Shown here piece after piece: positions 3,501-26,696 of a stretch of DNA of 39,555 nucleotides; the stretch's first letter is position 1; each line of letters starts with the position of its first letter. The position numbers and the translations under genes are program-made. This DNA comes from Thermofilaceae archaeon. GTDB taxonomy: Archaea; Thermoproteota; Thermoprotei; Thermofilales; Thermofilaceae. The stretch covers positions 1 through 39,555 of the forward strand of contig JAVYWK010000018.1 in NCBI GenBank assembly GCA_038727095.1, read 5' to 3'. Under the pieces are notes generated by a model that saw nothing but the letters and a program-made list of their open reading frames with translations, had not been told where the DNA came from and did no database searches.

Positions 3501-3506
3501 TTTAAA
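3501..3506 (+). promoter_or_regulatory. TATA box for the ADP-ribosylglycohydrolase gene
   Basis: TTTAAA about 23 nt upstream of in-frame GTG 3529, typical spacing for a leaderless archaeal transcript. Confidence 0.55.
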
Positions 3507-3528
3507 CGTGGTGCGGGGGAGTACGTGC

Positions 3529-5493: not shown

Positions 5494-8376
5494 CTAACCT
5501 CTTTGTGCCCTCCATTCGAGTGTTAGCTTTCTGACGAGTGATGCCACATCCCTTAAGCACTCTTTGGCGAACATCGTGTAAATGGTTACGATTTTCGATT
5601 CCAACTCTACAGCGTACTCGCCGTTTGCTCTCTTGATTCTAACCCTGTTGTAGGATTTAAAGGCTCGTCCCTCCACCTGGAGATATTCGAAGTAGACCAC
5701 GAAGACCGGTCGTTCTTCGTTACCTTCTATCCATCCCGAGACGCTATATACGCTCACCTTGTTTCCCGCCATCTCACTCAGCTTCGATTCGAGGAATTCG
5801 GCAAGCTCCCTTGCTTTCTCCTTACTCCTTACTACGACCGGTATCGGTGTGACGAGAGTGACTTCGCGTTCAACGTCATCTCGCGCGGATTCTTCTGCCT
5901 CTACCATCCACCTCCTTCTCAGAGATGGTACTGCTGCTACAACTGCTTTAGTGGCAGGCGATAGGGCTCCCAGGAGCGCTAGAACCGTTGGAAGAACTAT
6001 GGATAAGAGGAAGGAAGAAGTATCCAGTTTCACATCCACGGGTATCTCTGCACTGGTTGCACTGAATCCTCTGAATGCCGTTAAGCCGGCTAGATACCCC
6101 AAAACACCGCCGGCGAAGCCGATAACGCTGGCCATCATCACGAATACGAGGAAGACTTGGTCGGGGGTTGCTCCCAGTGTGGAAAGCGTGAAGATGTCCC
6201 TCCTTACCTCGTATACGAAGCCGAGAAACGACATGTAGACTATGAGCAGTGCTATGAGGCTGGGGATAAGGAGTTCCACCCCCACTACTTCAATCCGAAA
6301 GCCCGGGTAGTAAATTTCGGTGGGTTTACCAGCTTCAGCGACGTAGACGTTAACATTGCCCAGCAGGCTGAGGACTCTCGCTAACGTAGCGCTATCCGAT
6401 CCCGGGGTTAGTTTCACGTAAACCTTGTTTGTGACCGCTCCAACGAGGACAGCGTCTCCGTAGTAGAGGAACACAACGCTCTCAGCCGGCGGTTTGTAGC
6501 TCGAAGTTCCAACCATGATAGTGGGCAGCAAATCATCCCCGTCTAAGTCCTTGACTTTTGTCAGCGCTCTGCTATCGAAAACGCCAACCACCGTGTAACT
6601 AGATCCACCAATTTCGATAACGTCGCCAACCCTTAAACTGGCTGCTTTGGCCAGGGCGTCGCTGATGATGATTGCACTACTGTGAATCCCTAGGACGCTG
6701 CCCTCCACCATGCAGCAATTCTCCATGAGCATTGCGACTAGTGAGTTTTGGGTTATCCCAAACACGCCCGAGATAGGTAGTCCTCTCACCGTATCGTAGG
6801 GATTCATTGGGAACACCGCTATGGCGCTCGGAGAGATGCTTTGCACCTCGTTTCGGCTGGCGAGGAACGCTAACCCGGCAACATTGACCGGGGTGATCCC
6901 CCCGAAAGCTGCTAACCCGTAGCCGCGGGCGATGAGATACGGGCCGTCAATGGTCTCTGGTACAAATTCCGAGATTTGGTGGCTGACGGCAGTATGCATG
7001 GTAAACGATGTTAAGCACGTGGTACCAAAAGCCATCAAAGCGGTAGTAATGAAGAGTAAGATGGCTCTCAACCTTCGCCGCGCTAGGAAGCTTACAGAGA
7101 AGTTAACCGTTGAGGCGATTAGGCCTTCGAGAGTTGCACCGCTCGCAGTAGATATGGCTTGAACAGGTTTTTGCTTCAATAAAACCCTTAACCCCAGAAA
7201 GGCACCTATGACGGCTGCCGCCGAAGACAGCATGATCGCATTTATTCTAGCTTTTGGCAGCAGTTGAAAAGTAAGAACCCAGGTAACAGCGAATAGCGCG
7301 AAGCTGAAAACCACCTTTAAAGCCCACTTTTGGGACAACCTCAAACCTACTAGGAGGCAGAGGAGCATCTCAGCCCCGGTGAGTAGCAGTGCGTAAGTAA
7401 TGCTAGGCCCAGCTTCAAGTCGAACCAGGTATGTCTCAAGTTTCGATAAGAGGCTGTACGCAAGCCTCTGCCCGAACGCCTCCTGCAGGCTTCCGTCCTC
7501 AACTGCTACGCTCTCAGTGATTGATAACAGTCGTTTACTGCTGCCCAAGTAGTACCCGCTAGACTCGAGAGAGTTGAGGAGGTTACTCACGTTAGCTCGC
7601 AGTTCGCTCAGCTCCCCCCTGTTGGTTAGCAAAACTAGATTAGCGACATCTTCTATAGTCAAGGATCCGTTGGGTTTCGCGTCAAGAACCCACTTGAGCA
7701 ACTCTGCATGCCCCTTGAGCAGTACTCGTACTGAAACCTCTACCTGGCCCAATGGGGGGAGGATGAACCTTGATGCGTAAGAGGACAACTCAGGAACGGA
7801 GCGCCCTAGCAGCATCTGGTAGTTGGGCGTTAACCACTGCAGCTTGTAGGAGAGTTGCTCCGGCTCTAGCATTTGAACTTCAACTGAAATATCTGGGTAC
7901 CTCCCATCCAGGAGAGGTAGCACATTCACAGTTACAGCGAACCCTTCCACTACGGGCCACTCGAGGGTGAGTGCTGTCGAGTTAGCTAGGGTTTTCTCAT
8001 CAATAACCATGATAAAGGGAGTGAGGGGTTCTCCCCTGGAGAAGGGACCTAGGATTGAGAAGCGTTTAACTCCTGCGGGAACGGGTAGGAAAGCTTGGCT
8101 GCCTGAAACTTTGTAAGGGATGTACACTGGCACTTCGATGTAGCGGCGCGCTCCCGGTACTCTGGTGGGAAGGCTTCTCATTACCGTCGTATTGATGACC
8201 ATGAAGCCCTCAATCGGCCGCTGAAAGTTCAAGACGATTACACTCTGGGAAACCTCAGCGGTCATGGAATTACTGGTAAAACCATCCGAGTAAGCACATA
8301 CGCTCGGGAGGAGAAGTACAGAGATTACGGTCATAAGTCCTAGCGCTGCCCGCAAAGTGGGCTTAACGACTTTCAT
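5494..8376 (-). CDS. FtsX/MacB-like ABC-type permease with a large extracellular N-terminal region and a C-terminal soluble extension
   Basis: Signal peptide; ARRRLRAILLF start of a MacB-type extracellular core; LRVGDVIEIGG..YTVVGVF; VYEVRRDIFTLSTLGATP (FtsX ER.REI..L..LG motif); tail from AVPSLRRRW to LTLEWRA. Confidence 0.85.
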   Translation of the reverse strand: MKVVKPTLRAALGLMTVISVLLLPSVCAYSDGFTSNSMTAEVSQSVIVLNFQRPIEGFMVINTTVMRSLPTRVPGARRYIEVPVYIPYKVSGSQAFLPVPAGVKRFSILGPFSRGEPLTPFIMVIDEKTLANSTALTLEWPVVEGFAVTVNVLPLLDGRYPDISVEVQMLEPEQLSYKLQWLTPNYQMLLGRSVPELSSYASRFILPPLGQVEVSVRVLLKGHAELLKWVLDAKPNGSLTIEDVANLVLLTNRGELSELRANVSNLLNSLESSGYYLGSSKRLLSITESVAVEDGSLQEAFGQRLAYSLLSKLETYLVRLEAGPSITYALLLTGAEMLLCLLVGLRLSQKWALKVVFSFALFAVTWVLTFQLLPKARINAIMLSSAAAVIGAFLGLRVLLKQKPVQAISTASGATLEGLIASTVNFSVSFLARRRLRAILLFITTALMAFGTTCLTSFTMHTAVSHQISEFVPETIDGPYLIARGYGLAAFGGITPVNVAGLAFLASRNEVQSISPSAIAVFPMNPYDTVRGLPISGVFGITQNSLVAMLMENCCMVEGSVLGIHSSAIIISDALAKAASLRVGDVIEIGGSSYTVVGVFDSRALTKVKDLDGDDLLPTIMVGTSSYKPPAESVVFLYYGDAVLVGAVTNKVYVKLTPGSDSATLARVLSLLGNVNVYVAEAGKPTEIYYPGFRIEVVGVELLIPSLIALLIVYMSFLGFVYEVRRDIFTLSTLGATPDQVFLVFVMMASVIGFAGGVLGYLAGLTAFRGFSATSAEIPVDVKLDTSSFLLSIVLPTVLALLGALSPATKAVVAAVPSLRRRWMVEAEESARDDVEREVTLVTPIPVVVRSKEKARELAEFLESKLSEMAGNKVSVYSVSGWIEGNEERPVFVVYFEYLQVEGRAFKSYNRVRIKRANGEYAVELESKIVTIYTMFAKECLRDVASLVRKLTLEWRAQRG

Positions 8377-8438
8377 TCTTATTCGTGAAAGCTGGCGAGT
8401 TATCTTAAATAAACTTTTTTTCTATAGTTAATTTCACT

Positions 8439-9509
8439 CTACTGTAGTTCGTGATGCGCCATCATCAGCTTCTCGAGAGCTTCAAGTAGTGCTTCGATAT
8501 TGTTGAGTGGGACGTCGTGGAGAACCTCTGCGGTTATTAAAAGCCCCCCGCGTTTTGATCCGAGGACATCCACGACCTTCCTTATGTGGCTTCTGATATC
8601 ATCGGGGCTCCCGAAGGGGAGTAGGTACTGGCGGTCGATATCCACCTCTATCGCTACCTTCCCTTTCAGCTTGGCTAAACGGTTTAAGCCGTTTACAAGA
8701 TCCTGTACGTTGAGAACATGAACTCCAGCGGATACAAGGTCGTCAGCGATGTCCATAACGTAGCCGTCGCTATGTAACCGTACTTTCGCTCCACCCTTCC
8801 TGACCGTTGAGAATATCTTCTTGTAGCCGGGGAGAAGATGCTTTCTGAAACTAGCAGGAGAGAAGGGTAAACCCCTCTGCGTGCCTAAATCGTCCCCGAA
8901 GCTGACGATATCGACGCCCAATCTCACAAGGCGTTTAACAACCTCAACGTTATACTCTACGACGAGTTCAACAAGCTTCTCTAGCTCTGGTGGCTCCAGA
9001 ACTAGATCCTTAAGGAAGTTTAAGTACCCACGCAAGTACGTGAGGCGGAGGAAGAAAAAGCCGTGAGGCATGAAACCCACCACGAGACCTCCCATCCCCC
9101 TGAAGCCCTCGACAAAAGCCTCTACCTCGCTCCAGGGTATGGGGGGTTCACCCTCCCGCGGCAACCCAGCCTCCGGATCGGGTGGTTTGAAATCCTTCAT
9201 TCTGCTCCAGTCACTGAGAGGGTGTTTGACAACGATACCCTGGAGACCATCAACAGTAAACTTCCACACGCACCCCCATTCATCCCTAAACACTGGGGGT
9301 TTGCCCGCTGGCTTCTGTGAACGAAGCTGATTTTCATCGAACCATGGGAAAAGCAAGCGATGCTTCTTCACTATTCTTATGAGTTTCTCACCGTGCCTCC
9401 TCCAGGTTGGGAGCGGTATCGAAACAAAGCACGGGATATAAGTGGGCGAGCGAAACTCGATAGCACGCAAGTAGTTATCCCTCATGAAGCGAGGGTCCAC
9501 AAGCTGCAT
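8439..9509 (-). CDS. Uroporphyrinogen decarboxylase-fold protein (URO-D/MtaA superfamily), function unknown
   Basis: DEWGCVW, SFGDDLGTQRG.PFSP..FR, LHSDG, DRQYLLPFGSP, VPLNNIEAL; lacks the HemE RQAGR motif and the MtaA HxC zinc motif; TATA (tataaa 9535-9540) 26 nt upstream. Confidence 0.85.
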   Translation of the reverse strand: MQLVDPRFMRDNYLRAIEFRSPTYIPCFVSIPLPTWRRHGEKLIRIVKKHRLLFPWFDENQLRSQKPAGKPPVFRDEWGCVWKFTVDGLQGIVVKHPLSDWSRMKDFKPPDPEAGLPREGEPPIPWSEVEAFVEGFRGMGGLVVGFMPHGFFFLRLTYLRGYLNFLKDLVLEPPELEKLVELVVEYNVEVVKRLVRLGVDIVSFGDDLGTQRGLPFSPASFRKHLLPGYKKIFSTVRKGGAKVRLHSDGYVMDIADDLVSAGVHVLNVQDLVNGLNRLAKLKGKVAIEVDIDRQYLLPFGSPDDIRSHIRKVVDVLGSKRGGLLITAEVLHDVPLNNIEALLEALEKLMMAHHELQ

Positions 9510-9610
9510 TGCCTACTCGATGAAACGATTACTCTATAAATAATTAATGCCACAATAAGAAAAGAGGTAAGTTTAGTAAAATGGTTAGCAAAACTACTAG
9601 TGTAGGCTAC

Positions 9611-11077
9611 TCACTTCTTACGCCTTCTTAAGAGGATAAACGCAACAGCTGCGGCAATAACTATTAGTCCACCTATGCCCGCGTAAAGTAGGATAGGGAT
9701 CCCTTTCTGGAAGAGCTCTGGAACGTCGGGGTAGCTCGCGTCAACATCCGCGGGCTCGATTAAATAGTGCCCCCACTTCTGGAAGCCTTGAGCACCGGGG
9801 GCTATAACCTGGATTATTAAGTGGCCTGTTCCTTTGACGGAGTGCACACCGCTTCCCAGAACGATAAACTGGTCGCGTTTCAGCTCTTTCTGCTGACCGT
9901 TGATCCAAGCAGTCTGATCCTCAGGTGCGAACACGACGGCCATGGATGGTGTAAAGAACCTCACTTCCTGGTTTGGCCTTGAGCCGAGGAAGGTGATACC
10001 ATCACCGATGAAGTCGGGGGAGTCTTCCTGTAGCGTCTGGGCAATCAGCACGCTAATGTCGCCGGTGCTCTGAATCAGCGTGTCGAACCTACCGATGCCT
10101 AAGCTGAGGTACCAGTACCTCCTTTCGGCGACATCGCTCTCTGTAAACTCGTGCTCAGCTATGACGCTCATATCATCTCTCCTATAAACTGTAACTTTAC
10201 CAGGCTCTAACGGAACTATCACCAAGACAGCGCTCCTTCCCGTCTGTCGGTATGTCGCATGGTTTGGAGCCCAGAAGCTCCTTCCAACGTAACCACCCGT
10301 AAGGGCTGGTACATAGATGAGAGCCCCCAGCGCAACGCTACTCACCATAACCTCTCCCGTAGTGGTTAACTTAAACACCGCATCGTACCCAACCGCCGCA
10401 CTGACGCCACCTTGATTGACTCTGGATTGTAGAACAGCCCCAAAAACATCTCGAGGCTTGAGTGATTCTGAAGCTGAGAATCGACCAACCCTATCGACTA
10501 GATTGACGTCTGTTCCCTCCAGAGCGAAGACGTATAGATTGCGGTGAACAAGATCCATGGTATACCCGTACTGGTGGGTCGCGGGCGCGGGCATAAACAA
10601 GAAGTTCTTACCTCTGAACCCGCCTTCGACGCTCGGGTAGAAAGTAGCTACGCCGGAAAAGTAACCTGGATCATAAGCTGACGATCCACCCGTGAGTAAA
10701 ACTCCTACCCTCGCTGAAGCAACTAGCTTGAAGTATGTCCCGTAAGGCACGTAAAAGGTTGCTTTCTCCATAGCATTGAGAAGCGTTGAATTTAGAAGCA
10801 AGCCTGATACCACATCGTAAAGCTCGACTCTAGTCCCATCACGGTAAGCGACAACGTCCAACAGTGCATGCCCCCCTGGGGGAGTGAAGTTTACTTTTAT
10901 ACCCTCAACGAGTTCGTCTAGGCTGGGTAAATCCGTTGATGGCGGTACATATCCGTAATACACGTGTTGCACCGGTTGAGCCCATGCTGCTGGGTAGGTG
11001 AGCAGGTGGGCAATCGCCATAATCATGGAGAACAGCAATACTGCGAGTTTCACTTCAGACTTCATCATCAATGCCAT
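9611..11077 (-). CDS. Secreted, C-terminally membrane-anchored beta-rich surface protein, possibly IgGFc-binding-domain-like
   Basis: Signal peptide ending AAWA-Q; internal repeats FYPSVEGGFRGKNF / YVPALTGGYVGRSF; C-terminal TM helix followed by RRRKK. Confidence 0.7.
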   Translation of the reverse strand: MALMMKSEVKLAVLLFSMIMAIAHLLTYPAAWAQPVQHVYYGYVPPSTDLPSLDELVEGIKVNFTPPGGHALLDVVAYRDGTRVELYDVVSGLLLNSTLLNAMEKATFYVPYGTYFKLVASARVGVLLTGGSSAYDPGYFSGVATFYPSVEGGFRGKNFLFMPAPATHQYGYTMDLVHRNLYVFALEGTDVNLVDRVGRFSASESLKPRDVFGAVLQSRVNQGGVSAAVGYDAVFKLTTTGEVMVSSVALGALIYVPALTGGYVGRSFWAPNHATYRQTGRSAVLVIVPLEPGKVTVYRRDDMSVIAEHEFTESDVAERRYWYLSLGIGRFDTLIQSTGDISVLIAQTLQEDSPDFIGDGITFLGSRPNQEVRFFTPSMAVVFAPEDQTAWINGQQKELKRDQFIVLGSGVHSVKGTGHLIIQVIAPGAQGFQKWGHYLIEPADVDASYPDVPELFQKGIPILLYAGIGGLIVIAAAVAFILLRRRKK

Positions 11078-11155
11078 CTACCCCTCTCTTAAAAAGATTA
11101 CTGAAAAAAGGAATTAAAAAGAATTGTGAGTTGATTACTGCCCAATCCTCTCTTT

Positions 11156-13174
11156 TTAGTAAGCTCTGAACACCATGAACCTTATGATGTTTATCAAGCT
11201 GACCAGCAGTATGCCTGCGATCTCACCCGTGATGATGCCGACTGCTGCAGGAACACCGACCTCTTCGTAGGCTCTCCTGCCTCCAACCTTGATCAACGCA
11301 TATTTAACCGCCCAGACGATTAACGGAGTGAACGTGCCGATATGCCATGTATGGAAGTCGTGCAGCCCCAGCATGAATCCTAAGGGTTCTAGTGGCCACC
11401 ATGGGAACCTCATCCTCAAGAAGATTAGAGCACCGGTTAGGAGGAAGCCTACTAAACCGGGGATGGAAGCGATGCTGAGCCTCGGGTTGTAGAATCCGGC
11501 ATCACCATCCCAGAAGTAGTCCCACTCCTTAGCCACGGGCAGCTCCATAAAGCCCCAGGCGTGCAGCTCGATGAACGTTAACGGTATAGCTATCACAGCG
11601 GTGAGTATAGCACCGATCGTGAGTAGCTTGTAGACGGTATCTGGCTTCACTCCAGCCATCTGGGCTACCTTGAAGCTATCCATGGCGCCCATCATTGTCG
11701 AGTAGTAGGGACCGAAAGTATCGCAACCTGTTCCCCATCTGCATGTGTGAGAGATGATGAATAGCTTGCCGGCGGGGTACTGCGGTGCCGCTGGCATAGT
11801 ATCGCCAGCAAACGGCTTCCAGAAGTGCGCACCCCTTAGGAAGGTAATGTTGGCCGCATAGGCTCTAGCTCTTGTTAAGACAACCACCTGCAGCGTAATG
11901 ATCAGTAGCCCGATGACGGCATCCTGAGGTTCAACATTGCTGGCCGCGAATAGTATTATCAAACCGATCGCGCCTATAACCAGCATTAGGTAGGCTAGTC
12001 TGTAGGATACTTCACCGGGAGCAACACCGGGACCTCCACCGGAGATCGCTGACTTTATCGTACCCCAAATGTACTTCCAGTTAACGAGAATCATGAAGAC
12101 GAGGATGCCGAGAGCCATGCCAGCACTAACAGTCTCCAAGTATAGGGGCTCCGTGTGCCAGATCGCCCACCACTTGCTCCATATGCCCGCAGCGTATATG
12201 CCTGTGTAATAGCCAAAGTAGGTTAGAACTTGTGGCAGTATGACGGCAAAGCCGAGGTGTGCTACCCACATTGAGAGCAATGCGTCCAGCGGAACCAGGA
12301 AGAGGAAAGCGTGTCTTAACGGATCAGTTGCAACAACCACTGGGGCTGCGAGCCCCTGGGATACAGCCGGGTACGCTATAGTTAGCTGGAACTGGCCGGT
12401 TGACCAGCTGAGGTAGTTGGGGTTCGTTAACCAACCGTAGAAATCGGGGAGACCCGGGTACGCAGAGTAGATCATGTAGGGGACGTAGAACAGGAGGCCT
12501 ACCAGGAAAGAGATCTTCAGTATGCGTTTAAACCTATCGGACGTCTTACCCATTGCGGCTTCAGCTACAAGCCACCCCTGCGCGTGTGGGAAGGGAAGCA
12601 CCTCTATTTCGATCCACAGCCTCCTAAGGATCGCAGACCAGCCTAGGAAGAATAGAGCTGCAACAATGTACCAGTATACGTAAGTCGCGATAACCGGTGC
12701 CCACTCGTTCGCGTACACCGCGAAGAGGTTGTGCAGCGAGCCGCGGTAGAACATTCCTCGTACAGCATCAGCGGAGGGCATCCATATCATGGGCAGAGCG
12801 TAACCATGCGTTTCAGCCGTAGCAACCCTAATGTTGAATAGCGCGGCTGGTGTTGTGTAGAAACCTTTAAACACTGTGTACCAGGTTGTTATCATTGTTG
12901 CGATGAAGTAGAGGCATAAACGCTGAGCGTCGAGCTTAACCAGGTTCCTTTCCATGAGGAACAGCATTATCATTGCAAAGACCCAGGGTAGTGGCATAGC
13001 AACTAGTAAGCCACCCGAGGGCCCGTAGTTTATGCCGCCTGTACCCCAGGCGGCTGGTAGGAAGAGTGTAGCCGTTGTTGATATGACTGTCAAAATTGCG
13101 AGGTAGACGATCAGGGAGATCCAATCTTTAGTTGTTAGCGGGCGAACTTCCTCGACTTTTGAGGTAGTCGCCAT
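11156..13174 (-). CDS. OPT-superfamily-like polytopic membrane protein (DUF6785 + DUF6784 type)
   Basis: Many hydrophobic helices; ILRRLWIEIEVLPFP and LRMRFPWWPLEPLGF...KYALIKVGGRRAY motifs characteristic of this uncharacterized family. Confidence 0.75.
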   Translation of the reverse strand: MATTSKVEEVRPLTTKDWISLIVYLAILTVISTTATLFLPAAWGTGGINYGPSGGLLVAMPLPWVFAMIMLFLMERNLVKLDAQRLCLYFIATMITTWYTVFKGFYTTPAALFNIRVATAETHGYALPMIWMPSADAVRGMFYRGSLHNLFAVYANEWAPVIATYVYWYIVAALFFLGWSAILRRLWIEIEVLPFPHAQGWLVAEAAMGKTSDRFKRILKISFLVGLLFYVPYMIYSAYPGLPDFYGWLTNPNYLSWSTGQFQLTIAYPAVSQGLAAPVVVATDPLRHAFLFLVPLDALLSMWVAHLGFAVILPQVLTYFGYYTGIYAAGIWSKWWAIWHTEPLYLETVSAGMALGILVFMILVNWKYIWGTIKSAISGGGPGVAPGEVSYRLAYLMLVIGAIGLIILFAASNVEPQDAVIGLLIITLQVVVLTRARAYAANITFLRGAHFWKPFAGDTMPAAPQYPAGKLFIISHTCRWGTGCDTFGPYYSTMMGAMDSFKVAQMAGVKPDTVYKLLTIGAILTAVIAIPLTFIELHAWGFMELPVAKEWDYFWDGDAGFYNPRLSIASIPGLVGFLLTGALIFLRMRFPWWPLEPLGFMLGLHDFHTWHIGTFTPLIVWAVKYALIKVGGRRAYEEVGVPAAVGIITGEIAGILLVSLINIIRFMVFRAY

Positions 13175-13250
13175 CAGTGAACGTTGAAAACCTTAGGTAT
13201 AAATAGTTTCTGCTCGCAATCTTTTAAAACAGTATAGGTACCTGGTCTTC
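13175..13250. promoter_or_regulatory. Back-to-back divergent promoters for the membrane-complex cluster
   Basis: Minus-strand TTTATA (13203-13198) 24 nt from ATG 13174, with purine-rich BRE-like GAAAC upstream; plus-strand TTTTAAAA (13222-13229) about 22-29 nt from GTG 13251. Confidence 0.6.
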
Positions 13251-16200
13251 GTGAGCGCAAAGAAGCTGCACGTTAGCGTGATACTAGCGCTTTTAATTGT
13301 AGTAACCTTACAGGCTTCGATCTTACAGGTTCCTTTAATAAGCGCGCAACCCGTGGTAGTCACTCCCCGCAGGTTCAATGAGGTGATTGCCTCCCTTGAT
13401 AAAACGCTATTCCAGCAAGAGGTTGAGCTGCTCTCCAAGGAATCCAGGTTTACAGGGTATCCAGGTTTCTTCAAGGCGGCAAACTACATCGCACAGGTTT
13501 TCAGGGAAAACGGTATACCCCCGTATGGGCAAGATTACTTCGAGTGGTTTAACGTAACTGTTCCAATCGTTAAGCAAGCTTGGCTTATAACTGAAAATGG
13601 TAGGAACATTACCCTACTCCCGTTTTACCCGAACTTGGTTAACCCCAGCCAGTACGTTAGTGATGATTGGGATATCTTAGTGTATGTGGGTAAAGGCGAT
13701 CTAAAGGATTTTGATGGAAAGGATGTGAAAGATAAATTCGTTCTAATGGATTATGGATCTGGGTGGAACTACTACAACGCGCTCATGCTAGGGGCAAAGG
13801 GTGTGATCTTCATACCTGAAGACTCATCATCGGTGGATAGGCCGGAGTCCGAGCTGAAACTTACTCTTCTTCCTGTAAACTTTCCTAAACTGTACCTGCC
13901 GCCGGACGAGAAAGGCCTGGAACTGTTAGAGTTGTGCAGGAGATCGGGGTCCCGTGGAATCAGAGTCAAAATCCGCTCTGTAGTGGAGTGGGGAAACGTT
14001 AGAGTTCCAAACGTGGTTGGCTTTGTGAAGGGTACAGACCCGGCAAAATCCCAGAAAATAGTAGTGGTGGCCGCGTACTACGACTCCTTCTGCGCTATCC
14101 CCTCACTGGCGTACGGCGCTACCGATGCTCTCGGCGTGGTTACGCTTCTGCATTTCGCAAGATTTCTAGCGAAGAACCCTCCAAGCTACTCCGTTATAGT
14201 TGTAGCGCTAGCCGGCCACTACCAAGGTCTTTGGGGCGCCAGAGAGTTTGTTGAACGGCACTTCAATGAACTCGAATCTCAGATTATCGCGTTTGCTTCG
14301 ATGAAGCTCGCGAGTGACAGCGATCAGGTTGGTATCTACGCTGTGGGTTCCGCTTACTCTTACAGGTACCTTGACATACTGGTTCGCAGGTACACTTGGC
14401 TGGTTAGCAGGGTTTTCGGACCCTGGCTAGCTGAGATGAGGATGGTTTTAGGAAGCCGCTACGGCGAAAACTTTGTAGACGGTATCCTCGGAAGCCATCC
14501 CCCCTACTTGAGGTCGGCAGTCCCCTACGACCCTCATCTATACGGCTACTTTGCCCCCTCCGCGGTCTTCGGTGCACATGCATGGTACCTACGGACACAG
14601 TACGCGATCTTCGACTCAGAGCCTTTTACGCTCGCGATGTACGGTGGTGGATTCACATTTTACACAACTAACGCTTTTCGGAAATACCAGGGCTCTCCTG
14701 CAGATACGGTATCCAACATCAATTTCGATAACGTGTGGCCTCAAGTGCATTTCATTCACTGCACGCTTTGGGCGATGCTAAATGAGGAGATCAACCTGCC
14801 GACTTCTAAAAGGAGGCTTAGCGACGACTGGGGCTACGTGACTGTTAGCGTTAAAGTGACAACGTACAACATGCTTACATCGTACTGGGACATAGTTAAC
14901 TTCACCCAGTATCCCGAGCTGAGGGGTAGGCTCCTAACCTACATTACGTATGGCGGCTTGAAGTTTGTGCAAAAGGTTGAGGACACCGGTACAGTCACAA
15001 TCCACGGCCTCAAACCCTACATGGGCGGGAGCGTAGATGTGTTTGCAATCGATGAGCACGGTAGGATATTGTGGACAACCGACATGGGCGTCTGGCAGGC
15101 GCCCGGTGGTAAGTGGTTCACTCCCACCTCATACCCCTACGTGAAAATGGTGTCGATATTCGAGTGCGCGTCGATCTTCGTGTTTCTAACGATGCAGCCG
15201 ACCGACTTTAGAACAGTATGGTTTACCGGGATAAATGATGCGAGAGCCCACAGCCCAATGATCAGGCAGAACAGCTTGCAGGCGGACATCTTTGCGATGG
15301 CGTTTGTTCAGCCGGGGATTCCCGCCGAGATTATGCTTAGCGTGGGGACAGGGTTGCCGAGCGTTGTACTGAATAACGCTTCTACCAATCGACCGGAGGG
15401 CTTTGGATACAGGCTAGCAAAGGGGGAGCAGATCGTACTCTCACAATTCCACGTTCTCGAGAACCTTTACGCTGTAGTCAACAGTCGGTACGAGAGCTTA
15501 AGATCGAGGAACGTTATAATCCCCGTCCTCGAGTATTACGCTGACCTTGTGAAGCAGGTTAAAAGGCAGATGGCGGACAATCTACAGACTCTAAGGTATT
15601 CAAACGCGTTCGGTGCTTGCCTGTACGCGTGGGCAGCTCTCCTGAACTGGTATAATTCTCTAATGACTTCACTGTATCAAGTTATTACGTCCGTTGCAGC
15701 CTTCTTTGCCATTTCAATTCTCTTCTCGATACTGTTTGAAAGGTTGACTGTAAGATCCGAGGGGTTGCGGAGGTTAATCAGCCTGCTGGCATTAATTACC
15801 ATGGCCAACTTTGCGCTCTACATCCTGCATCCGGCCTACCACGTCGCCAGCAACTGGGTAATCCTGCTTCTAGCTGTGTCAGCAGTATCTCTTAACATCG
15901 TGCTCCTCTTCATAGCCTTCATGAACGCCTACACGATGGCGAAGGCAACGAGAGAAGCTGCACTAGGTAAGCACTACCTAGAGATCAGCCGTACGGGGCT
16001 TTTCCTTGAAAGCATGGTGATAGCTGTAGAGAACATGAGGAAGCGCAAATTGCGATCAATCCTGATACTTGGCGCTGTCACAGTGATCGCGTTCTCCACG
16101 ATGTCGCTAGCCTCGGTGACTACAGCTCCTGTCTTACTACCACAACCCATTAACGTGACTTACATGCCGAGCTTCGAGGGTCTTTTAGTGAGGGCTTACC

Positions 16201-17705
16201 CGTGGTCCCCAATCAACCCCTATGCTTACAACATGCTTGCTTCCTACCTCGAGGGATCGTGCTATGTATCTCCTCGAGCTTTCATGTACCCCCCATCGCT
16301 GATGGTTGCTATGCCGGGGTTAGCTACGGGGCTCACGTACATTGCGTTCAGCCCGCAGCTTAAGACGCAAGTCTATTCTTTACTGGCGTTAGCTCCCGAG
16401 GAAGCGTACGTGTCAAACATAGATAAACTGCTCGTTGATGGGCGATGGTTCACCGACGACGACGTGTATGCCGTCATATTGACCCAAAGTGTTGCAAACA
16501 GCCTTTCTCAGGAGCTGGGCAGGCAGATCGGAGTGAATTCAACGCTTAACCTATGGAGCATCAACGTTAGAGTGGTTGGAATAATCAAGGATGAGGTTGA
16601 GAGATTCGCGAATCCAGACGCTGAACCCATAACACCCTTAGATCCTCAATCACCGATTGCGCTGCCACAGCACATATTCGCTCGGAACACCATGATCATC
16701 CCCTTCAAGCTGTACCAGAAGCTGGCACCCACCTACGCTGTAACAAACATCGGTATCAGGCCGCTGAACGTGGAGGTAGCAAACCACTTAAAAAGTACAC
16801 TCCCATACGTCATCAACTACCCAATCTACTCATCATTCGGGGGTTCAGTGTCAGCTTGGATCGCTAGGCAGTGGATCAGCGCGATAGGGTTTGAATTCAT
16901 CCTTATACCCGCGATCATAGCTAGCGCAGCCGTATTAGACATGATGCTCGCCAACATTTACGAGAGGAAAAGGGAAATTCACATTTTCATCTCTGTTGGA
17001 ATGGCGCCCTCTCACGTAACTCTCGCCTTCCTCACCGAAGCGTTAACCTATGTTCTTCCCGCCGTGTTCCTGGGTTACGTGGCTGGTGTCCTAGCCACCA
17101 ACTTAATGCTGACTGCCGGTGCCTTCCCAGAAGGTTTGTATCCAAATTACACATCGATGTCGATCTTAATGGTCGTCCTCCTTATAATAGCGATCGTACT
17201 AGTGGCCGCCTACTACCCCTCCACTCTAGCCGGGAAGATAGCCATACCGTCACGCGTTAGAAAGTGGATTGAGGCCGAGAAAGGACCAACGGGGGATGAG
17301 TGGAGGTTGTCCTACCCACTCGTATTAACAACAGCTAGAGAAGTGATAGCGTTCTTCAACTTCGTTAAAGGCTATCTGGAGTCTCTAGCCATCAGAGAGT
17401 CCGCCTACTATGCCGAAAAAGTCGAGATCACTGAGAGGGAGAGTAAGGAGGGGCACGAGCTGCACATGATGGCAAGTTGCAGGTTCGCACCCTATGACCT
17501 AGGTATCAAGAGCGATGTAATCCTCAGAGCGTTCAAGAAGGGTGATTCACCTGTTTACAACTTCGACTTAGTGATCAAGAGACTCGAAGGTTACAGGCAG
17601 GCTTGGCGAACGTCTGCGATCACTGTAGCAGGCGACATCAGGAGGCAGGCGATTGTTTGGCGAAGCCTCAGCCCTGAAGAAAGAGAAAAATACGCTAGGG
17701 TGTAG
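13251..17705 (+). CDS. Fusion of a PA + degenerate M28 peptidase extracellular domain with an FtsX/MacB-like permease (1484 aa)
   Basis: Signal peptide; SRFTGYPG..AA.YI (M28 N-terminus); VYVGKG...DVKDKFVL...GAKGVIF (PA domain); NVVG..IVVVAAYYDS..GATD..GHYQGLWGA (M28 core with substituted ligands); ENMRKRKLRS; IYERKREIHIFISVGMAP (FtsX); tail from AIPSRVRKW to AIVWRSL. Confidence 0.85.
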   Translation: MSAKKLHVSVILALLIVVTLQASILQVPLISAQPVVVTPRRFNEVIASLDKTLFQQEVELLSKESRFTGYPGFFKAANYIAQVFRENGIPPYGQDYFEWFNVTVPIVKQAWLITENGRNITLLPFYPNLVNPSQYVSDDWDILVYVGKGDLKDFDGKDVKDKFVLMDYGSGWNYYNALMLGAKGVIFIPEDSSSVDRPESELKLTLLPVNFPKLYLPPDEKGLELLELCRRSGSRGIRVKIRSVVEWGNVRVPNVVGFVKGTDPAKSQKIVVVAAYYDSFCAIPSLAYGATDALGVVTLLHFARFLAKNPPSYSVIVVALAGHYQGLWGAREFVERHFNELESQIIAFASMKLASDSDQVGIYAVGSAYSYRYLDILVRRYTWLVSRVFGPWLAEMRMVLGSRYGENFVDGILGSHPPYLRSAVPYDPHLYGYFAPSAVFGAHAWYLRTQYAIFDSEPFTLAMYGGGFTFYTTNAFRKYQGSPADTVSNINFDNVWPQVHFIHCTLWAMLNEEINLPTSKRRLSDDWGYVTVSVKVTTYNMLTSYWDIVNFTQYPELRGRLLTYITYGGLKFVQKVEDTGTVTIHGLKPYMGGSVDVFAIDEHGRILWTTDMGVWQAPGGKWFTPTSYPYVKMVSIFECASIFVFLTMQPTDFRTVWFTGINDARAHSPMIRQNSLQADIFAMAFVQPGIPAEIMLSVGTGLPSVVLNNASTNRPEGFGYRLAKGEQIVLSQFHVLENLYAVVNSRYESLRSRNVIIPVLEYYADLVKQVKRQMADNLQTLRYSNAFGACLYAWAALLNWYNSLMTSLYQVITSVAAFFAISILFSILFERLTVRSEGLRRLISLLALITMANFALYILHPAYHVASNWVILLLAVSAVSLNIVLLFIAFMNAYTMAKATREAALGKHYLEISRTGLFLESMVIAVENMRKRKLRSILILGAVTVIAFSTMSLASVTTAPVLLPQPINVTYMPSFEGLLVRAYPWSPINPYAYNMLASYLEGSCYVSPRAFMYPPSLMVAMPGLATGLTYIAFSPQLKTQVYSLLALAPEEAYVSNIDKLLVDGRWFTDDDVYAVILTQSVANSLSQELGRQIGVNSTLNLWSINVRVVGIIKDEVERFANPDAEPITPLDPQSPIALPQHIFARNTMIIPFKLYQKLAPTYAVTNIGIRPLNVEVANHLKSTLPYVINYPIYSSFGGSVSAWIARQWISAIGFEFILIPAIIASAAVLDMMLANIYERKREIHIFISVGMAPSHVTLAFLTEALTYVLPAVFLGYVAGVLATNLMLTAGAFPEGLYPNYTSMSILMVVLLIIAIVLVAAYYPSTLAGKIAIPSRVRKWIEAEKGPTGDEWRLSYPLVLTTAREVIAFFNFVKGYLESLAIRESAYYAEKVEITERESKEGHELHMMASCRFAPYDLGIKSDVILRAFKKGDSPVYNFDLVIKRLEGYRQAWRTSAITVAGDIRRQAIVWRSLSPEEREKYARV

Positions 17706-17708
17706 GCG

Positions 17709-19646
17709 ATGATCGTGAAGAGCGAAGGTAAGGCGCTCACACCGAAAATTATCCTAATGTTCCTATTTACGGCACTTATACTGCAGCCACTCGTTATATA
17801 CTACTTTCTGCTAACGAACAGCTTTTACGCATTCTCTTACTGGATTCCCATCCTCCTCTTTGCTGAAATTGCTAGCTTGGCTAGAGCGGATTTTACCAGT
17901 AAAGAGCTCTTCATGCTCCTAATCTTCCAACCGGTAGCCTTCTCATACTCCCTCTTCTTCATAAACTTCATACGTAACATGTACTTCGCCTACAGCGAGC
18001 CTTCAAAGTACTTCGGCATAGCGCAGCATGTGCCCAGTTGGTGGGTACCGTCTGAGCACATAGTAGCATCATTTTACGAGGAGAAGTGGGTGTTCCTTGA
18101 TCGAGCGTGGCTGCAACCAATCGCTCTTGCACTGGTTTTCATAGCGCTAACCATCATGATAGATCTATCGCTCGGCTACTTGAGCTACATGCTGTTCGTT
18201 GTTGAGGAGCGATTGGAGTTCCCCTTTGCACGCGCTACCGTTGCGATGGTGACAACACTGGCTAACAGAGAGCCGACCACATTGAGGACGCTCTTCGCCG
18301 CGACAGCTGCCGGTATAATCCTGAATCTCGTCTTAAAATTCCTGCCTTTCATGCTCTCAGTATTCCTTCTCGGTGGAACATTCGTAGTGGGTGGAATACC
18401 ATTCTACGGCTACGATTTCACCGGGTATCTGGATTACGTCCTACCCGGAGCAGCCTTCCTAATCGTAACTGACCCACTAGCGTATGTGAGCGGCTTATTG
18501 ATACCACCGGTAGTCGCCGTCACACAGTTCATCGCAAGCTTCACCCTCTACTTCGTGGGTACACACCTGATAACGCGATTCGATCTCTGGCCGCCCGAGA
18601 GCAAGTGGGTGACTGGTTGGGGCTACTGGACACTACAGTTCAGGAGCATGCTATACTTCTACGTCTCCCTGCTCATTGGCCTGAGCCTAGCAGCGATGGT
18701 GATCCCCCTGGCAATGAATCCAAAACCGCTGGCACGCGCTTTCAGGTCGCTCAGAACGATGAGCGCAAGAGGGGGCGTTTCAGCAAACCTTCTGTTAGCG
18801 CTATTTTTCGGCTCATCGGTCACCGCTAGCCTTCTCGCCTGGTACCTAACGGGGTTCAGGTTCCCGGTCTACATACTCCTAATCCTCTTCGTCGGAGGAT
18901 CGTTCTTCGCGACCTACATCGCTACAGCCTCGGCGGGAGTTACAGTCTTCGGGACAAGCGTTCCCTACCTGAGGGAACTAATGATATACGTGTCCGGTTA
19001 CGATAAGAGGGATATCTGGTTCGTCCCTATGCCAGCCCTACTGTCCAGCGCTCCTCTCGGTACAGCAGCAGCCACGCTGTCCTCACCTCTAGGCGGCTCA
19101 TCGATTGCGCAGGCTCTACTGCAGGCCGACGTCGTGGGAGTTAAACACTCGGATTTTGTGACTACGTACATGCTGCTCATCGTAGTAAACCTCGTTAGCA
19201 GTTTCATTTTCGCAAACATCTTCTGGAGTATATCTCCGATCCCCTCTAGCGCCTACCCGTACACAATCACCGGCTGGCCTGTAGACGCCGTTAACTGGGC
19301 GCGAATGCAAGTGTGGATCTGGACCGGCTACCTCTTCAGGCACACGTGGATCGCATTGGGCTTCGCCGTGGGCGCGGCCCTTTTTGCAGTCTCGAACTTC
19401 GTCCTTAGAGCGCCCTACCTACTGATCGTCGCTCTAACCGGTGCAGGTATGGGAATCCCGTGGGCCTTCTCCCAGATGCTAGGCTCTTTGATCGGAAGGA
19501 GAGCTCTCAGCAAGATGCTGGGGGAGAAGTGGGGCATGTACTCGTACCTCATCGTGACGGGCATCTTCCTGGGGGATGCAGTAATGGAGATGCTCAGAGT
19601 GTTGATGATAATCCTAGCTCGAGCCCAGTGGCTGCTGCCCTTCTAA
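17709..19646 (+). CDS. OPT-like polytopic membrane protein (putative transporter), co-transcribed with the M28-FtsX fusion
   Basis: Starts 3 nt after the upstream stop; highly hydrophobic; LFVVEERLEFPFA motif matches EIEVLPFP in 11156..13174; FWSISPIPSSAYPY. Confidence 0.75.
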   Translation: MIVKSEGKALTPKIILMFLFTALILQPLVIYYFLLTNSFYAFSYWIPILLFAEIASLARADFTSKELFMLLIFQPVAFSYSLFFINFIRNMYFAYSEPSKYFGIAQHVPSWWVPSEHIVASFYEEKWVFLDRAWLQPIALALVFIALTIMIDLSLGYLSYMLFVVEERLEFPFARATVAMVTTLANREPTTLRTLFAATAAGIILNLVLKFLPFMLSVFLLGGTFVVGGIPFYGYDFTGYLDYVLPGAAFLIVTDPLAYVSGLLIPPVVAVTQFIASFTLYFVGTHLITRFDLWPPESKWVTGWGYWTLQFRSMLYFYVSLLIGLSLAAMVIPLAMNPKPLARAFRSLRTMSARGGVSANLLLALFFGSSVTASLLAWYLTGFRFPVYILLILFVGGSFFATYIATASAGVTVFGTSVPYLRELMIYVSGYDKRDIWFVPMPALLSSAPLGTAAATLSSPLGGSSIAQALLQADVVGVKHSDFVTTYMLLIVVNLVSSFIFANIFWSISPIPSSAYPYTITGWPVDAVNWARMQVWIWTGYLFRHTWIALGFAVGAALFAVSNFVLRAPYLLIVALTGAGMGIPWAFSQMLGSLIGRRALSKMLGEKWGMYSYLIVTGIFLGDAVMEMLRVLMIILARAQWLLPF

Positions 19647-19710
19647 AAGGAATACTTTAGCACCCAGTCATTCTTTCATCGTTTAAGCCGCTCAATTTTT
19701 TAGAAGAAAA

Positions 19711-22062
19711 ATGTCGGGAAGGCTCGTGAGTAGAGCTTCCTCGCCGCAGCGGTTGAGGCGCGCGTGCGGCTTGATAGTGCTAGCCATCACTGCCCTAGCC
19801 TTGGCGTCGGTTAGGACGGTCCTTGTAGGTGGGGAGGTGGCTGGCTGGGACCACTCCTTCCACTTCACTAACGCGTACCTCACCTACTTCTTCTTCATGG
19901 CGGATGGACACCCCATCGGCTACGACCCTTGGCACATGTACGGATGGCCTCCAAACCTCTACTACAACCCGGGGACAACGCTGTTCGTAGCGTTCACCCA
20001 CAGCATCCTCTCGCCCCTGCTCGACATGAAGTCTACGTACAGCCTCTGCGTCGCGCTCAGTTACGCGCTGATGGCTCCCGCCGCTGCGGTGCTCGCGCAC
20101 GCGTTAACCGGATCCCCCCTCGCCGCCACTACGGCCGCCCTAGTTGCGGTCACAGTCTTCGATGAGGAGAACTCTTGGACGGATGCCGGCTGGCGCCAAG
20201 TGTACTACATTGGGATGTGGCCCCAGCGGTGGGGGATTGTGACGGGGTTGGCATCGATCGCTCTCCTCGTGTACGCTATCAAGAGGCGCGGCTTCGAGGC
20301 TCTCCCGCTGCTAGCAGCCTCCACCCTGCTCATGGCGTGGTCCACCTTCACTCACGTGATGATGGGCGCTGCCACAGCCGTTTCTGCCTTGGTGTTTGCT
20401 CTCTTTGAGGCTTCCAAGGCGATCTTCCAGCGCTCTTTCAGAGATGGAGGAAGGGTTGTCGTGTTAAGCGCCTTGTGGCTGCTCTGGTCTCTAGCTCTAC
20501 TGGCCTTCTGGCTCGTCCCCATGCTTGAGACGAACGAGAGGTACCACGGGCTTCGAACGCTCACCTGGGAGGTTGGGCCCGGGATCGTGTTCACGATTCT
20601 AGCCTCCTACCCCGCCTACCTCAACGTGCTGGCCCTCGCAGGCCCACTGCTGACCACCGTTAAACGGAGAAAGCCCATTCCTTGGATCCTCTATGCAGCT
20701 TGGGTTGTTCTGACTGCGGCGACCGTCGCGTCCGCTGGAGGAGCTTTACCGCGCGAAGCTATGGGTACATTCACCCTCCTATCGCTCTGCTTCGCCCTAC
20801 CCCTGTACTCTTGGTCCGGTGGCGAGGGGGGCCTCATCCTGCTGCCCACACTAGCTCTGCTGCTACTGTGGCTGGCTACGGGACCGAGGACCTACGTGAT
20901 CCTGCTCCCCGGTGCGAAGCTGAGCTTCGAGAACCTCCCCGTCATTGAGTGGTTTGGGTACGGCAAGTTCGCGGGGTACGCACGCTACATCCTATTGATC
21001 AGCTTCTCAGCCACAGCGGCCGCGTTCATCTCGAAGGCTGCGGGGTGGGCCCATCGTAACCCCGGTCAGGATCGCTGGGTGGCAGCCCTAGCTGTGGCTT
21101 CACTGGCGGTTGCCGGGCTTTACCTGCCGGCTCTCTCTGGAATGCTCAGGAACACCGATTTCGTCACTCAATCGAAGAAGTTCAGGTTCATCGAGGAGTT
21201 CCCCCTGTACAGCAACGTGAGCGACTTCATCTCCGCCCTATCAATCCTGGGGTTGAGCAGTAACACGTACCTGCTCGTGCAGGACCTCAGCGACAACTTC
21301 GCTGATTGGGTCACCTTCTGCCACAACCACTTCGTCTACGAGTTCCCCCTCTACCTAGGCGTCCCCATTGTAGGAGGCATCGTCTGGACCCGCTACGCGA
21401 CGCAGCCCATCTCAACGACGGAGTACTCGAGGCTCTTCACGGTCGATATCGGCCACTGGGCGCAGAACGTGGAGACGTTCCACCGGATGCTCAGTGAGCT
21501 TGGGATCTCCTACGTTGCGACCTTCGACTGGAGGCTCAAGGAAGCGCTCAGGTCCAGCCCCCTCTTCGAGGAAGTGGTGTCCGTGCCGCCCTACACGCTC
21601 TTCAGGACGAGGAGCTTCCACCCGTTAATCACGGTGGAGGGGGCTGAGGTGAGGGATGTCGTCATTCGACCCAACCTCATCCGCTTTACGCTCAAAGCCC
21701 ACCCGCTCCAGGAGTACGAGGTTTGCGTTAGGCTGATCCGGTTCCCCGGGCTCACCGTCACTACCTACCCGGAGGCCGTCTCGATCGCCATCTCCAGCTA
21801 CAACCCATGGGTGGCTGACGAGGTTTCGAGAGCTTGGGGCTACAGGGTTGAATCGAGAATCCCCTTCATCAAGCTCACCTTAGTTCCGCTCGCGGACGAA
21901 ACGGTCGTGGAGATCCGCTACAGGCCTGGCAGCTGGGGCGACAGCGTCTCGCTGGTAGCCGTTCTAGCCGCATCCCTCGCGCTGCTACAGCCCATCCTAG
22001 CCTACTTGCACGCTTTCGCTCGTTTCAAGCTGGCCTGGCGACAGCAGCGTTCACCGTTTTGA
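19711..22062 (+). CDS. Multi-pass membrane protein of the PTPS-related/YfhO-like group, probable GT-C-fold glycosyltransferase
   Basis: GWDHSFH then WHMYGWPPNLYYNPG in the first external loop; many TM helices, AFWLVP, extracellular C-terminal domain with LSELGISYV, final TM; TATA tttaag ~24 nt upstream. Confidence 0.65.
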   Translation: MSGRLVSRASSPQRLRRACGLIVLAITALALASVRTVLVGGEVAGWDHSFHFTNAYLTYFFFMADGHPIGYDPWHMYGWPPNLYYNPGTTLFVAFTHSILSPLLDMKSTYSLCVALSYALMAPAAAVLAHALTGSPLAATTAALVAVTVFDEENSWTDAGWRQVYYIGMWPQRWGIVTGLASIALLVYAIKRRGFEALPLLAASTLLMAWSTFTHVMMGAATAVSALVFALFEASKAIFQRSFRDGGRVVVLSALWLLWSLALLAFWLVPMLETNERYHGLRTLTWEVGPGIVFTILASYPAYLNVLALAGPLLTTVKRRKPIPWILYAAWVVLTAATVASAGGALPREAMGTFTLLSLCFALPLYSWSGGEGGLILLPTLALLLLWLATGPRTYVILLPGAKLSFENLPVIEWFGYGKFAGYARYILLISFSATAAAFISKAAGWAHRNPGQDRWVAALAVASLAVAGLYLPALSGMLRNTDFVTQSKKFRFIEEFPLYSNVSDFISALSILGLSSNTYLLVQDLSDNFADWVTFCHNHFVYEFPLYLGVPIVGGIVWTRYATQPISTTEYSRLFTVDIGHWAQNVETFHRMLSELGISYVATFDWRLKEALRSSPLFEEVVSVPPYTLFRTRSFHPLITVEGAEVRDVVIRPNLIRFTLKAHPLQEYEVCVRLIRFPGLTVTTYPEAVSIAISSYNPWVADEVSRAWGYRVESRIPFIKLTLVPLADETVVEIRYRPGSWGDSVSLVAVLAASLALLQPILAYLHAFARFKLAWRQQRSPF

Positions 22063-26687: not shown

Positions 26688-26696
26688 GCAAGAATG

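Follow-up and report, generated by a model that had tools for sequence, protein, structure and literature searches.

A recurrent three-gene module joining an M28-FtsX fusion to two OPT-fold paralogues in a Thermofilaceae archaeon: a candidate multi-copy uptake system

The window considered here, a stretch of DNA of 39,555 nucleotides (nt) from a Thermofilaceae archaeon, is an entire contig (C18, 39.5 kb) of a 1.86 Mb genome that is 92% complete. It carries a core unit of three genes: M28-FtsX, encoding a fusion of a peptidase-like ectodomain with an FtsX-type membrane domain, and A1 and A2, encoding two polytopic proteins of the OPT fold. This unit recurs and is widely conserved, and several uncultured archaeal lineages, among them Bathyarchaeia, Thermofilaceae and Brockarchaeota, have the module in multiple copies. 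The component families are known, while their architecture and their pairing are new. We read the cluster, with moderate confidence, as one copy of a modular, multi-copy uptake system in which an ATPase is shared in trans and the OPT-fold pair forms the path. An initial annotation of the sequence had proposed instead an import or sensing machine with no ATPase, made of two FtsX-like permeases, two OPT-like carriers, an anchored surface protein and a URO-D-fold enzyme. The core features, with lengths in amino acids (aa), are as follows.

11156-13174, minus strand: A2, DUF6785/DUF6784 protein, 672 aa, divergent from M28-FtsX, core gene
13175-13250, no strand: divergent intergenic region, 76 nt, two TATA-like boxes
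13251-17705, plus strand: M28-FtsX fusion, 1484 aa, core gene
13389-14303, plus strand: PA/M28-like part of the ectodomain, about aa 47-351, Glu-Glu replaced by His-Trp/Tyr
15681-15893, plus strand: three extra transmembrane (TM) helices before the FtsX unit, aa 811-881, from hydropathy and AlphaFold2 (AF2)
15990-17252, plus strand: type VII ATP-binding cassette (ABC) membrane and periplasmic core domain, MacB/LolC/FtsX-like, aa 914-1334
17253-17702, plus strand: C-terminal cytoplasmic alpha/beta domain, aa 1335-1484, predicted to be non-nucleotide-binding
17709-19646, plus strand: A1, OPT-fold polytopic transporter, 645 aa, core gene, starting 3 nt past the M28-FtsX stop codon

All six open reading frames (ORFs) of the cluster that had first been delimited are present at the positions and lengths given for them, and the gap between its divergent halves does measure 76 nt. 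Two TATA-like boxes lie in this gap (tataaata, 13198-13205, and ttttaaaa, 13222-13229), each about 25 nt before its own start codon; the region is a putative promoter, and the spacing would be compatible with leaderless archaeal transcripts. A Pfam scan of the window bears out the domains proposed for both FtsX proteins, with FtsX and MacB_PCD in the 1484-aa and 960-aa proteins, Peptidase_M28 in the 1484-aa protein and URO-D in the 356-aa protein, and names no family for A1 (645 aa) or for the 488-aa protein. Chance is excluded as the origin of the gene row: homologues exist for all of the large ORFs, and other genomes repeat the gene order. The nearest related loci belong to Thermofilaceae metagenome-assembled genomes, in which the large protein is 62-68% identical, and the DNA runs that contain the stretch are hot-spring metagenomes.

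The M28-FtsX protein consists, in order, of an N-terminal anchor, a PA/M28 pseudo-peptidase ectodomain, three extra TM helices, the FtsX unit and a C-terminal cytoplasmic domain, and hydropathy gives both FtsX proteins of the window the same plan of N-terminal anchor, ectodomain, three extra TM helices, four FtsX TM helices and cytoplasmic tail. Its Pfam matches are FtsX (PF02687, E-value 3.8e-14), Peptidase_M28 (PF04389, 6.1e-10) and MacB_PCD (4.4e-06), with FtsX and MacB_PCD over the cut-off and the Peptidase_M28 match covering profile positions 1-92 of 193 only. The best PDB sequence for a profile of the six fusion paralogues in the genome is 2ek8_A, a PA-domain M28 aminopeptidase (E-value 1.1e-25), and the profile also matches transferrin receptor (2.5e-07) and nicalin (5e-05). 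These last two are non-catalytic M28-like proteins. Aligned with 2ek8_A, the fusion family has Gly-His-Trp opposite the Ala-Glu-Glu of the enzyme, and the window copy has Tyr ('AAYYDS') in place of the first metal-binding His and Lys at a later conserved Asp position. The catalytic and metal ligands of M28 enzymes are presumably His, Asp, Glu-Glu, Asp and His, and the description of the fusion as a pseudo-peptidase stands, its M28 domain being without the catalytic Glu-Glu pair.

For the membrane part, the C-terminal 690 residues of the fusion were modelled with AF2 from an alignment of 53 sequences, giving a predicted local distance difference test (pLDDT) score of 84, with helices 2-39, 45-71 and 75-115 as the extra TM helices. 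Model residues 120-540 match MacB, LolC/E, YtrF, HrtB, BceB and FtsX, with Foldseek E-values down to 1e-12 (MacB, 5lil_A) and VIA Z-scores of 12-17. An 'ERxRE' motif in the loop between TM2 and TM3 is invariant in the 53 sequences; in MacB-type proteins we take this loop to be the coupling helix that contacts the ATPase. The last 150 residues are modelled with a beta-alpha-beta4-alpha topology and give weak matches resembling KA1 or the C-terminal domain of AMPK (Z 8-9) and START-like rows in Foldseek, with no family named. This C-terminal domain, which is conserved in FtsX960 as well, is by its predicted fold not a nucleotide-binding domain.

A pairwise BLAST comparison of A1 with A2 shows no similarity. 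When profiles built from six paralogues each in the genome are compared with hhalign, the two align at a probability of 99.65% (E-value 4.4e-25, 593 columns), and the E.L.FP motif that had been noticed in both falls in register (E167-R-L-E-F-P172 in A1 and E191-V-L-P-F-P196 in A2). A2 matches the Pfam families DUF6784 (3.1e-14, 53.4 bits) and DUF6785 (3e-10, 39.7 bits), both over the cut-off. A search of the PDB by sequence returned nothing meaningful for A1, and its AF2 model, built from a 51-sequence alignment (pLDDT 87.5, predicted template modelling score 0.88), has Foldseek matches in the PDB at E < 0.1 only to barley YS1 (Yellow stripe 1, a transporter of the OPT family; 7wst_A, 8.1e-08, and 7wsr_A), with TM-scores of 0.61-0.65; the next row is an unrelated structure at 0.15. 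Among the six A1 paralogues, Pfam OPT is found in one (5.3e-12), and the neighbours of A1 in an Atlas feature search partly carry OPT. By the hhalign homology and the YS1 match of the A1 model, the earlier description of two OPT-like carriers was right: A1 and A2 are two ancient OPT-fold paralogues, A2 being the Pfam pair DUF6785/DUF6784.

The genome itself provides the first evidence of recurrence. It contains 13 FtsX-domain matches, ten of them within open frames of 975-1802 aa; six of these ten are full-length M28-FtsX paralogues at 25-28% identity, each with an A1 paralogue directly beside it; a DUF6785 gene is present in five of the six loci, and a hidden Markov model (HMM) census counts 6 M28-FtsX, 6 A1 and 7 A2 genes. 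By arithmetic on coordinates, the module takes up about 50 kb, or about 3% of the 1.86 Mb. A scan of one genome per species returned 63 related loci from Thermofilaceae, Bathyarchaeia, Brockarchaeota, other Thermoproteota, Calditenuaceae and Nitrososphaerota and, among bacteria, Armatimonadota and Planctomycetota. In the 40 evaluable loci, where the fusion gene is full-length and each flank extends for 2.2 kb or more, A1 lies within 300 nt in 33, A2 in 27, both in 25 and neither in five; the remaining two loci comprise one ordered A1-A2-fusion and one with a split fusion gene followed by A1. Where A1 follows on the same strand, the gap behind the fusion is -54 to +37 nt, often with overlapping stop and start codons, and A1 is directly behind the fusion in all four bacterial loci with a downstream flank. 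The homologues of the three core genes therefore do co-localise, A1 being near the fusion in 33 of 40 loci and both OPT-fold genes in 25, and they stay together across archaea and also in bacteria.

One subfamily of M28-FtsX has no OPT-fold neighbour (L034, L037, L039, L042, L051, L062 and L068). Its members share a fixed upstream row of GFO/IDH/MocA, aldo/keto reductase and FAD-linked oxidase genes, and an unrelated ABC ATPase (36% identity) lies 3-6 kb downstream in four of the seven (L034, L039, L051 and L062).

Neighbouring genes offer some indication of the substrate. The commonest neighbour family, the GFO/IDH/MocA oxidoreductases, contributes 28 genes in 20 of the 63 loci, seven of these loci belonging to the syntenic subfamily just described. 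Beside modules of this genome lie GH4, a PfkB kinase, two fucose-isomerase-like genes and an FAD oxidoreductase; beside those of other genomes GH57, a xylose-isomerase-like TIM barrel and a GFO gene, and in Armatimonadota a sugar ABC transporter. Genes for an ADP-ribosylglycohydrolase and for a GH2 enzyme are present within the window. Crude sampling that took in 147 of the 251 neighbour ORFs, from 56 loci, yields 10 GFO/IDH/MocA proteins, 5 xylose-isomerase-like TIM barrels, 5 URO-D, 2 PfkB and 2 UxuA proteins. These sugar-catabolic neighbours agree with a substrate of glycan or glycoside type, and a glycoside or oligosaccharide is moderately favoured over a peptide. OPT-family proteins transport peptides or metal chelates in an ion-coupled manner, and because of these substrates and the M28 ancestry of the ectodomain, peptides stay possible.

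The statement that the system has no ATPase is true in cis only. Of 55 ABC_tran matches genome-wide, not one lies on C18 or on the module-bearing contigs C10, C8, C42 and C31, and at the module on C16 the sole match on the contig is 13.6 kb away. Elsewhere, two small canonical FtsX genes (on C2 and C4) each have an adjacent ATPase. One of these pairs, at C2 90283-91689, consists of a single-copy 211-aa FtsX adjoining a MacB-type ATPase; to judge by eye from its sequence, this FtsX would lack an ectodomain, since only about ten residues join TM1 and TM2, which is odd for a mechanotransmission family. The search for an orphan ATPase that had been suggested did find one of MacB type, at C11 8829-9563 (244 aa, 74% identical to the C2 ATPase), on a contig with no FtsX; the 184-aa ORF beside it does not resemble the small FtsX in BLAST and, judged by eye, seems to be soluble.

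The distribution of these genes was compared across 251 Thermoproteota genomes, the best four large-FtsX matches per genome being scored, with profile cut-offs of E <= 1e-20 for the large FtsX, 1e-30 for A1 and 1e-25 for the small FtsX. For the ATPase, the cut-off was a best E-value of at most 1e-95 (at least 62% identity), chosen after a gap from 2.7e-96 to 2.4e-85 had been seen. A large FtsX is found in 62 genomes and a close ATPase in 62: both occur in 60, the FtsX only in two (70% and 89% complete), the ATPase only in two and neither in 187, so that the close ATPase is present in 60 of 62 genomes with a large FtsX against 2 of 189 without, counts that are descriptive and not a test because the genomes are kin. 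The pattern splits three families of the GTDB taxonomy at genus level (f1, f7 and f30). A1 occurs in 49 genomes, all among the 62 with a large FtsX (0 of 189 otherwise), and the small FtsX in 57, with one match each, 56 of them among the 62.

In some genomes the ATPase is found beside the module itself. Two complete archaeal genomes have, within 14 kb, the row fusion-A2-A1-GH57-(183 aa) followed on the opposite strand by a C11-type ATPase, a C2-type ATPase and the small FtsX, with about 7 kb between the module and this small-FtsX/ATPase/ATPase operon; the genus of G198 and G046 has one module, with the ATPase operon 7 kb off. In one further genome a C2-type ATPase is 2 kb from the module. In the subfamily with detached A1 and A2, coordinates place a C2/C11-type ATPase 5 kb from A1 in six genomes. 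Three Armatimonadota loci (L056, L059 and L065) form a single row, fusion-A1-(302 aa)-PqqD-like-FtsX(623 aa)-ATPase-GFO, whose ATPase shares 63% identity with its archaeal counterpart. In these three loci the family-less 302-aa protein, the PqqD-like protein, the 623-aa FtsX and the ATPase follow A1 at about 18100-22200; PqqD-like proteins of other systems are peptide-binding chaperones. Four bacterial genomes each have a single ATPase at 61-63% identity, the next best reaching at most 51%, and a tree places the bacterial module ATPase inside the archaeal C2/C11 clade (support 100/99) with no other bacterial sequence in the tree. In both bacterial phyla the FtsX beside the ATPase is closest to the archaeal small FtsX. 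A shared ATPase engine acting in trans is the more likely reading.

The proposed uptake system would work as follows. The ectodomain-less, single-copy small FtsX and two paralogous MacB-type ATPases, encoded elsewhere in the genome, would be the engine, and ATP hydrolysis would move the FtsX membrane domain of the fusion by mechanotransmission, as in MacB and LolCDE, possibly with that domain in a heterodimer with the small FtsX. The moved ectodomain would capture an extracellular substrate, most likely a glycoside or oligosaccharide and less likely a peptide, and pass it to the OPT-fold pair; A1 and A2, perhaps themselves a heterodimer, would be the translocation path through which the substrate is imported. 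A bolder version of this scheme, which we hold to be rather unlikely, is a new class of transporter, a hybrid of primary and secondary transport, in which one type VII ABC engine pairs in trans with up to ten interchangeable giant FtsX heads, each feeding its own OPT heterodimer, so that ATP-driven capture is coupled to ion-driven translocation. A complex prediction for A1 with the membrane helices of M28-FtsX gave a score of 0.07 and a mark of 0.32 and speaks neither for nor against binding.

Several observations weigh against the uptake system proposed here, besides the late choice of the ATPase cut-off and the kinship of the sampled genomes. The five of 40 loci with neither A1 nor A2 nearby are one subfamily, and in the one genome of it that was examined (G098) the divergently paired A1 and A2 lie 700 kb away from the fusion. 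The window A1 has no match to Pfam OPT (PF03169) at E <= 1. Most neighbour ORFs are unrelated, the sugar theme being a minority (GFO/IDH/MocA 10 of 147), and three of the genome's modules sit among housekeeping genes. The ATPases always have their own small FtsX somewhere and possibly form a separate transporter that merely shares the phyletic range, while the C-terminal cytoplasmic domain of the fusion could occupy the docking site of an ATPase. Finally, what the analysis shows is the anatomy of the genes, their folds, the kinship of A1 with A2, their kept adjacency and a phyletic range shared with the ATPase and the small FtsX; contact among the parts, the coupling of ATP hydrolysis in trans to the fusion, the direction of transport and the substrate are things that we infer.

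Three other explanations were weighed. The best surviving of them, although unlikely, is an export or envelope machine, in which the OPT pair would move a glycoconjugate precursor, lipid-linked or free, outward, the fusion would extract it or place it at the surface in the manner of LolCDE and MacB, and the GT-C-like gene product and the anchored surface proteins would be clients. The characterised type VII ABC systems do act outward or at the outer face, a GT-C-like gene lies behind A1 and a paralogue of it beside another large FtsX, and the cluster encodes two anchored surface proteins; against this, characterised OPT-family members are importers, the GT-C-like gene occurs in only 4 of 63 loci, the most frequent neighbours encode cytoplasmic sugar-catabolic enzymes, and six modules at 25-28% identity in one genome better fit substrate-specific uptake than a single assembly pathway.

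Next, and improbable in our judgement, A1 and A2 would be ordinary ion-coupled importers and the fusion an independent surface protein, for instance one that binds or processes and is held by its FtsX domain, acting upstream on the same substrate, co-regulated and forming no complex. The subfamily in which the fusion and A1/A2 are 700 kb apart, with A1 and A2 still adjacent, speaks for such separate functions, and a search of longer proteins related to A1 found no fused forms with M28-FtsX, which is weak evidence. Three results argue the other way: stop and start codons of fusion and A1 overlap or nearly touch in the majority of loci (-54 to +37 nt), as is typical of co-made subunits; the adjacency is kept across the divide between archaea and bacteria; and A1 is in 0 of 189 sampled genomes without a large FtsX. 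Least probable is the ATPase-independent hetero-oligomer first imagined, in which two FtsX proteins gate or deliver the substrate passively or driven by the ion-coupled OPT pair: contigs C18, C10, C8, C42 and C31 without an ABC ATPase, and an extra cytoplasmic domain, found in no canonical family member, that might replace the ATPase as partner, speak for it, but a coupling-helix motif (its role being taken as above) is invariant in 53 sequences, the ATPase clade accompanies the large FtsX (in 60 of 62 genomes that have one and in 2 of 189 that lack it) and in some cases adjoins the module, and FtsX960 is absent from the five other paralogous modules.

Compared with the type VII ABC systems (MacB, LolCDE, FtsEX, YtrEF, HrtBA and BceAB), the fusion has the same four-helix FtsX unit with a core domain between TM1 and TM2 and the coupling-helix motif; what sets it apart is the lack of a fused or neighbouring ATPase, the three additional TM helices, the size of its N-terminal ectodomain (about 800 aa, part of it PA/M28) and a cytoplasmic C-terminal domain of about 150 aa. 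The genomes also differ, with six to ten large paralogues each against one small FtsX, and the adjacency of an OPT-fold gene is constant. With the OPT/YSL family (PF03169, barley YS1), A1 shares its overall fold, and one A1 paralogue matches Pfam OPT; unlike that family, the window A1 is without such a match, two divergent paralogues stand side by side, and an FtsX fusion goes with both. Transferrin receptor and nicalin, M28 pseudo-peptidases that serve as receptors or scaffolds, resemble the ectodomain in combining the M28 fold with a PA insert and in the loss of the catalytic Glu-Glu pair, whereas the fusion is prokaryotic and joins the ectodomain to an ABC-type membrane domain in one chain. 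The closest solved relative of the ectodomain is an active bacterial aminopeptidase, 2ek8_A. TRAP and TTT transporters offer a functional analogy only, in that an extracytoplasmic capture component feeds an ion-coupled carrier; in them a small binding protein, either soluble or anchored to lipid, acts as receptor, and no ABC parts take part.

Full-text literature searches found no description of DUF6785 or DUF6784 and nothing relevant on FtsX with OPT in archaea, on MacB/M28/FtsX-like proteins or on OPT in Bathyarchaeota or Thermofilum, and for type VII ABC systems in archaea only a general review; the earlier statement that no characterised system combines these parts agrees with this, none having turned up in the searches. 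Through the proposed uptake system DUF6785/DUF6784 would acquire a fold, a partner and a probable role, and the mechanotransmission principle of MacB would reach archaea with a new architecture. Should the parts form one machine, it would be the first link of an ABC mechanotransducer with an OPT-fold carrier. The recurrence of the module points to a large unannotated share of substrate uptake in these heterotrophs and bears on metabolic reconstructions from metagenomes.

The other genes of the row, on both sides of the core unit, are as follows.

5494-8376, minus strand: FtsX960, second large FtsX protein, 960 aa, accessory
8439-9509, minus strand: URO-D-fold enzyme, 356 aa, accessory
9611-11077, minus strand: anchored surface (beta) protein, 488 aa, accessory
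19711-22062, plus strand: polytopic protein, candidate GT-C-type glycosyltransferase, 783 aa, 64 nt downstream of A1
22059-23522, plus strand: anchored protein, 487 aa, overlapping the 783-aa gene by 4 nt
23538-23978, plus strand: small helix-turn-helix (HTH) protein, TrmB/IclR-like, ending the plus-strand gene row

Four members of this list count as lineage-specific accessories, namely FtsX960, the URO-D-like enzyme, the beta protein and the GT-C-like gene downstream of A1. FtsX960 matches FtsX (3.4e-12) and MacB_PCD (4.1e-07), both over the cut-off; it is without an M28 domain, has the same core of three extra TM helices, FtsX unit and C-terminal domain, and is 23% identical to M28-FtsX over the C-terminal half. 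Its best paralogue is a 1792-aa protein on C12, and an orthologue is present in L014. An FtsX pair had been put forward as a core feature, and a second large FtsX gene is present at only four or five of the 63 related loci (L012, L014, L028 and L049, with a fragment in L025). BLAST and HMM listings contain none at the five other M28-FtsX loci of the genome, and because these modules do without one, the pairing of FtsX960 with M28-FtsX as an obligatory unit was rejected. The full row of FtsX960, URO-D enzyme, beta protein, A2, fusion, A1 and 783-aa gene is kept in L014, from Thermofilaceae.

Two further members of the machine as first imagined exist as described and are not core parts of it. 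By hydropathy the 488-aa protein is hydrophobic near its N terminus (9-27) and anchored at its C terminus (456-474), as expected of an anchored surface protein, and its homologues are found in 9 of 63 related loci. The 356-aa protein matches Pfam URO-D (PF01208, 8.2e-19, profile positions 150-345 only), and URO-D-like genes occur in 11-12 of the 63 loci. The MtaA/CmuA models give it 37-48 bits against cut-offs of 235-400; by these scores it would belong to the URO-D fold family and would not be the specific MtaA/CmuA enzyme. Ten URO-D-fold genes match in the 1.86 Mb genome, the one in the window (8439-9509) and nine in other places.

Downstream of A1, the 783-aa protein matches no Pfam family, and an Atlas feature search places it with YfhO, PTPS_related and DUF6541 clusters (0.98-0.99), a lead only, by which it is probably a GT-C-type glycosyltransferase; homologues of its gene are found in 4 of 63 related loci. 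A paralogue at C12 6134-8464 is divergent from, and adjoins, the gene of the 1792-aa FtsX, an arrangement that suggests a second kind of large-FtsX module. The C-terminal third of the 487-aa protein, which is anchored by hydropathy, matches NCBIfam TIGR04292 (CGP-CTERM Cys-rich) at 8.9e-36, below the cut-off, and a 46%-identical paralogue lies on C4. The small HTH protein (Pfam TrmB 1.7e-4 and HTH_IclR 2.3e-4, both below the cut-off) is a possible regulator.

On the other side of the cluster, a 753-aa ORF (3145-5406) had been described as an ARH-NEW3-PA14 protein; its ADP_ribosyl_GH domain is found by Pfam at residues 145-413, and NEW3 and PA14 give no match at E <= 0.01. The listed GTG start of this ORF overlaps a 404-aa ORF on the opposite strand, so that translation may in fact begin further in. 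The GH2 gene that had been reported later in the window is confirmed at 38438-39553.

Scans of the window for tRNA genes, Rfam families and tandem repeats found nothing. A metatranscriptome run, X12, contains contigs at 90-99% identity to the window that cover 8335-9462, 9753-10462, 11625-12556, 15059-15652, 15909-16585 and 17589-18724, and word depth over the window is uneven in X12 and comparatively even in three DNA runs; this is a hint only, because contigs cannot prove transcription, strand or a joint transcript. One X12 contig links position 23419 back to 22143 with 16 other letters between, a link shown by no DNA run, and the junction could reflect either an assembly error or a related strain. 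In the regions 24000-32400 and 33900-37300 of the window, the ORFs are all short (<165 aa) except for one MFS gene.

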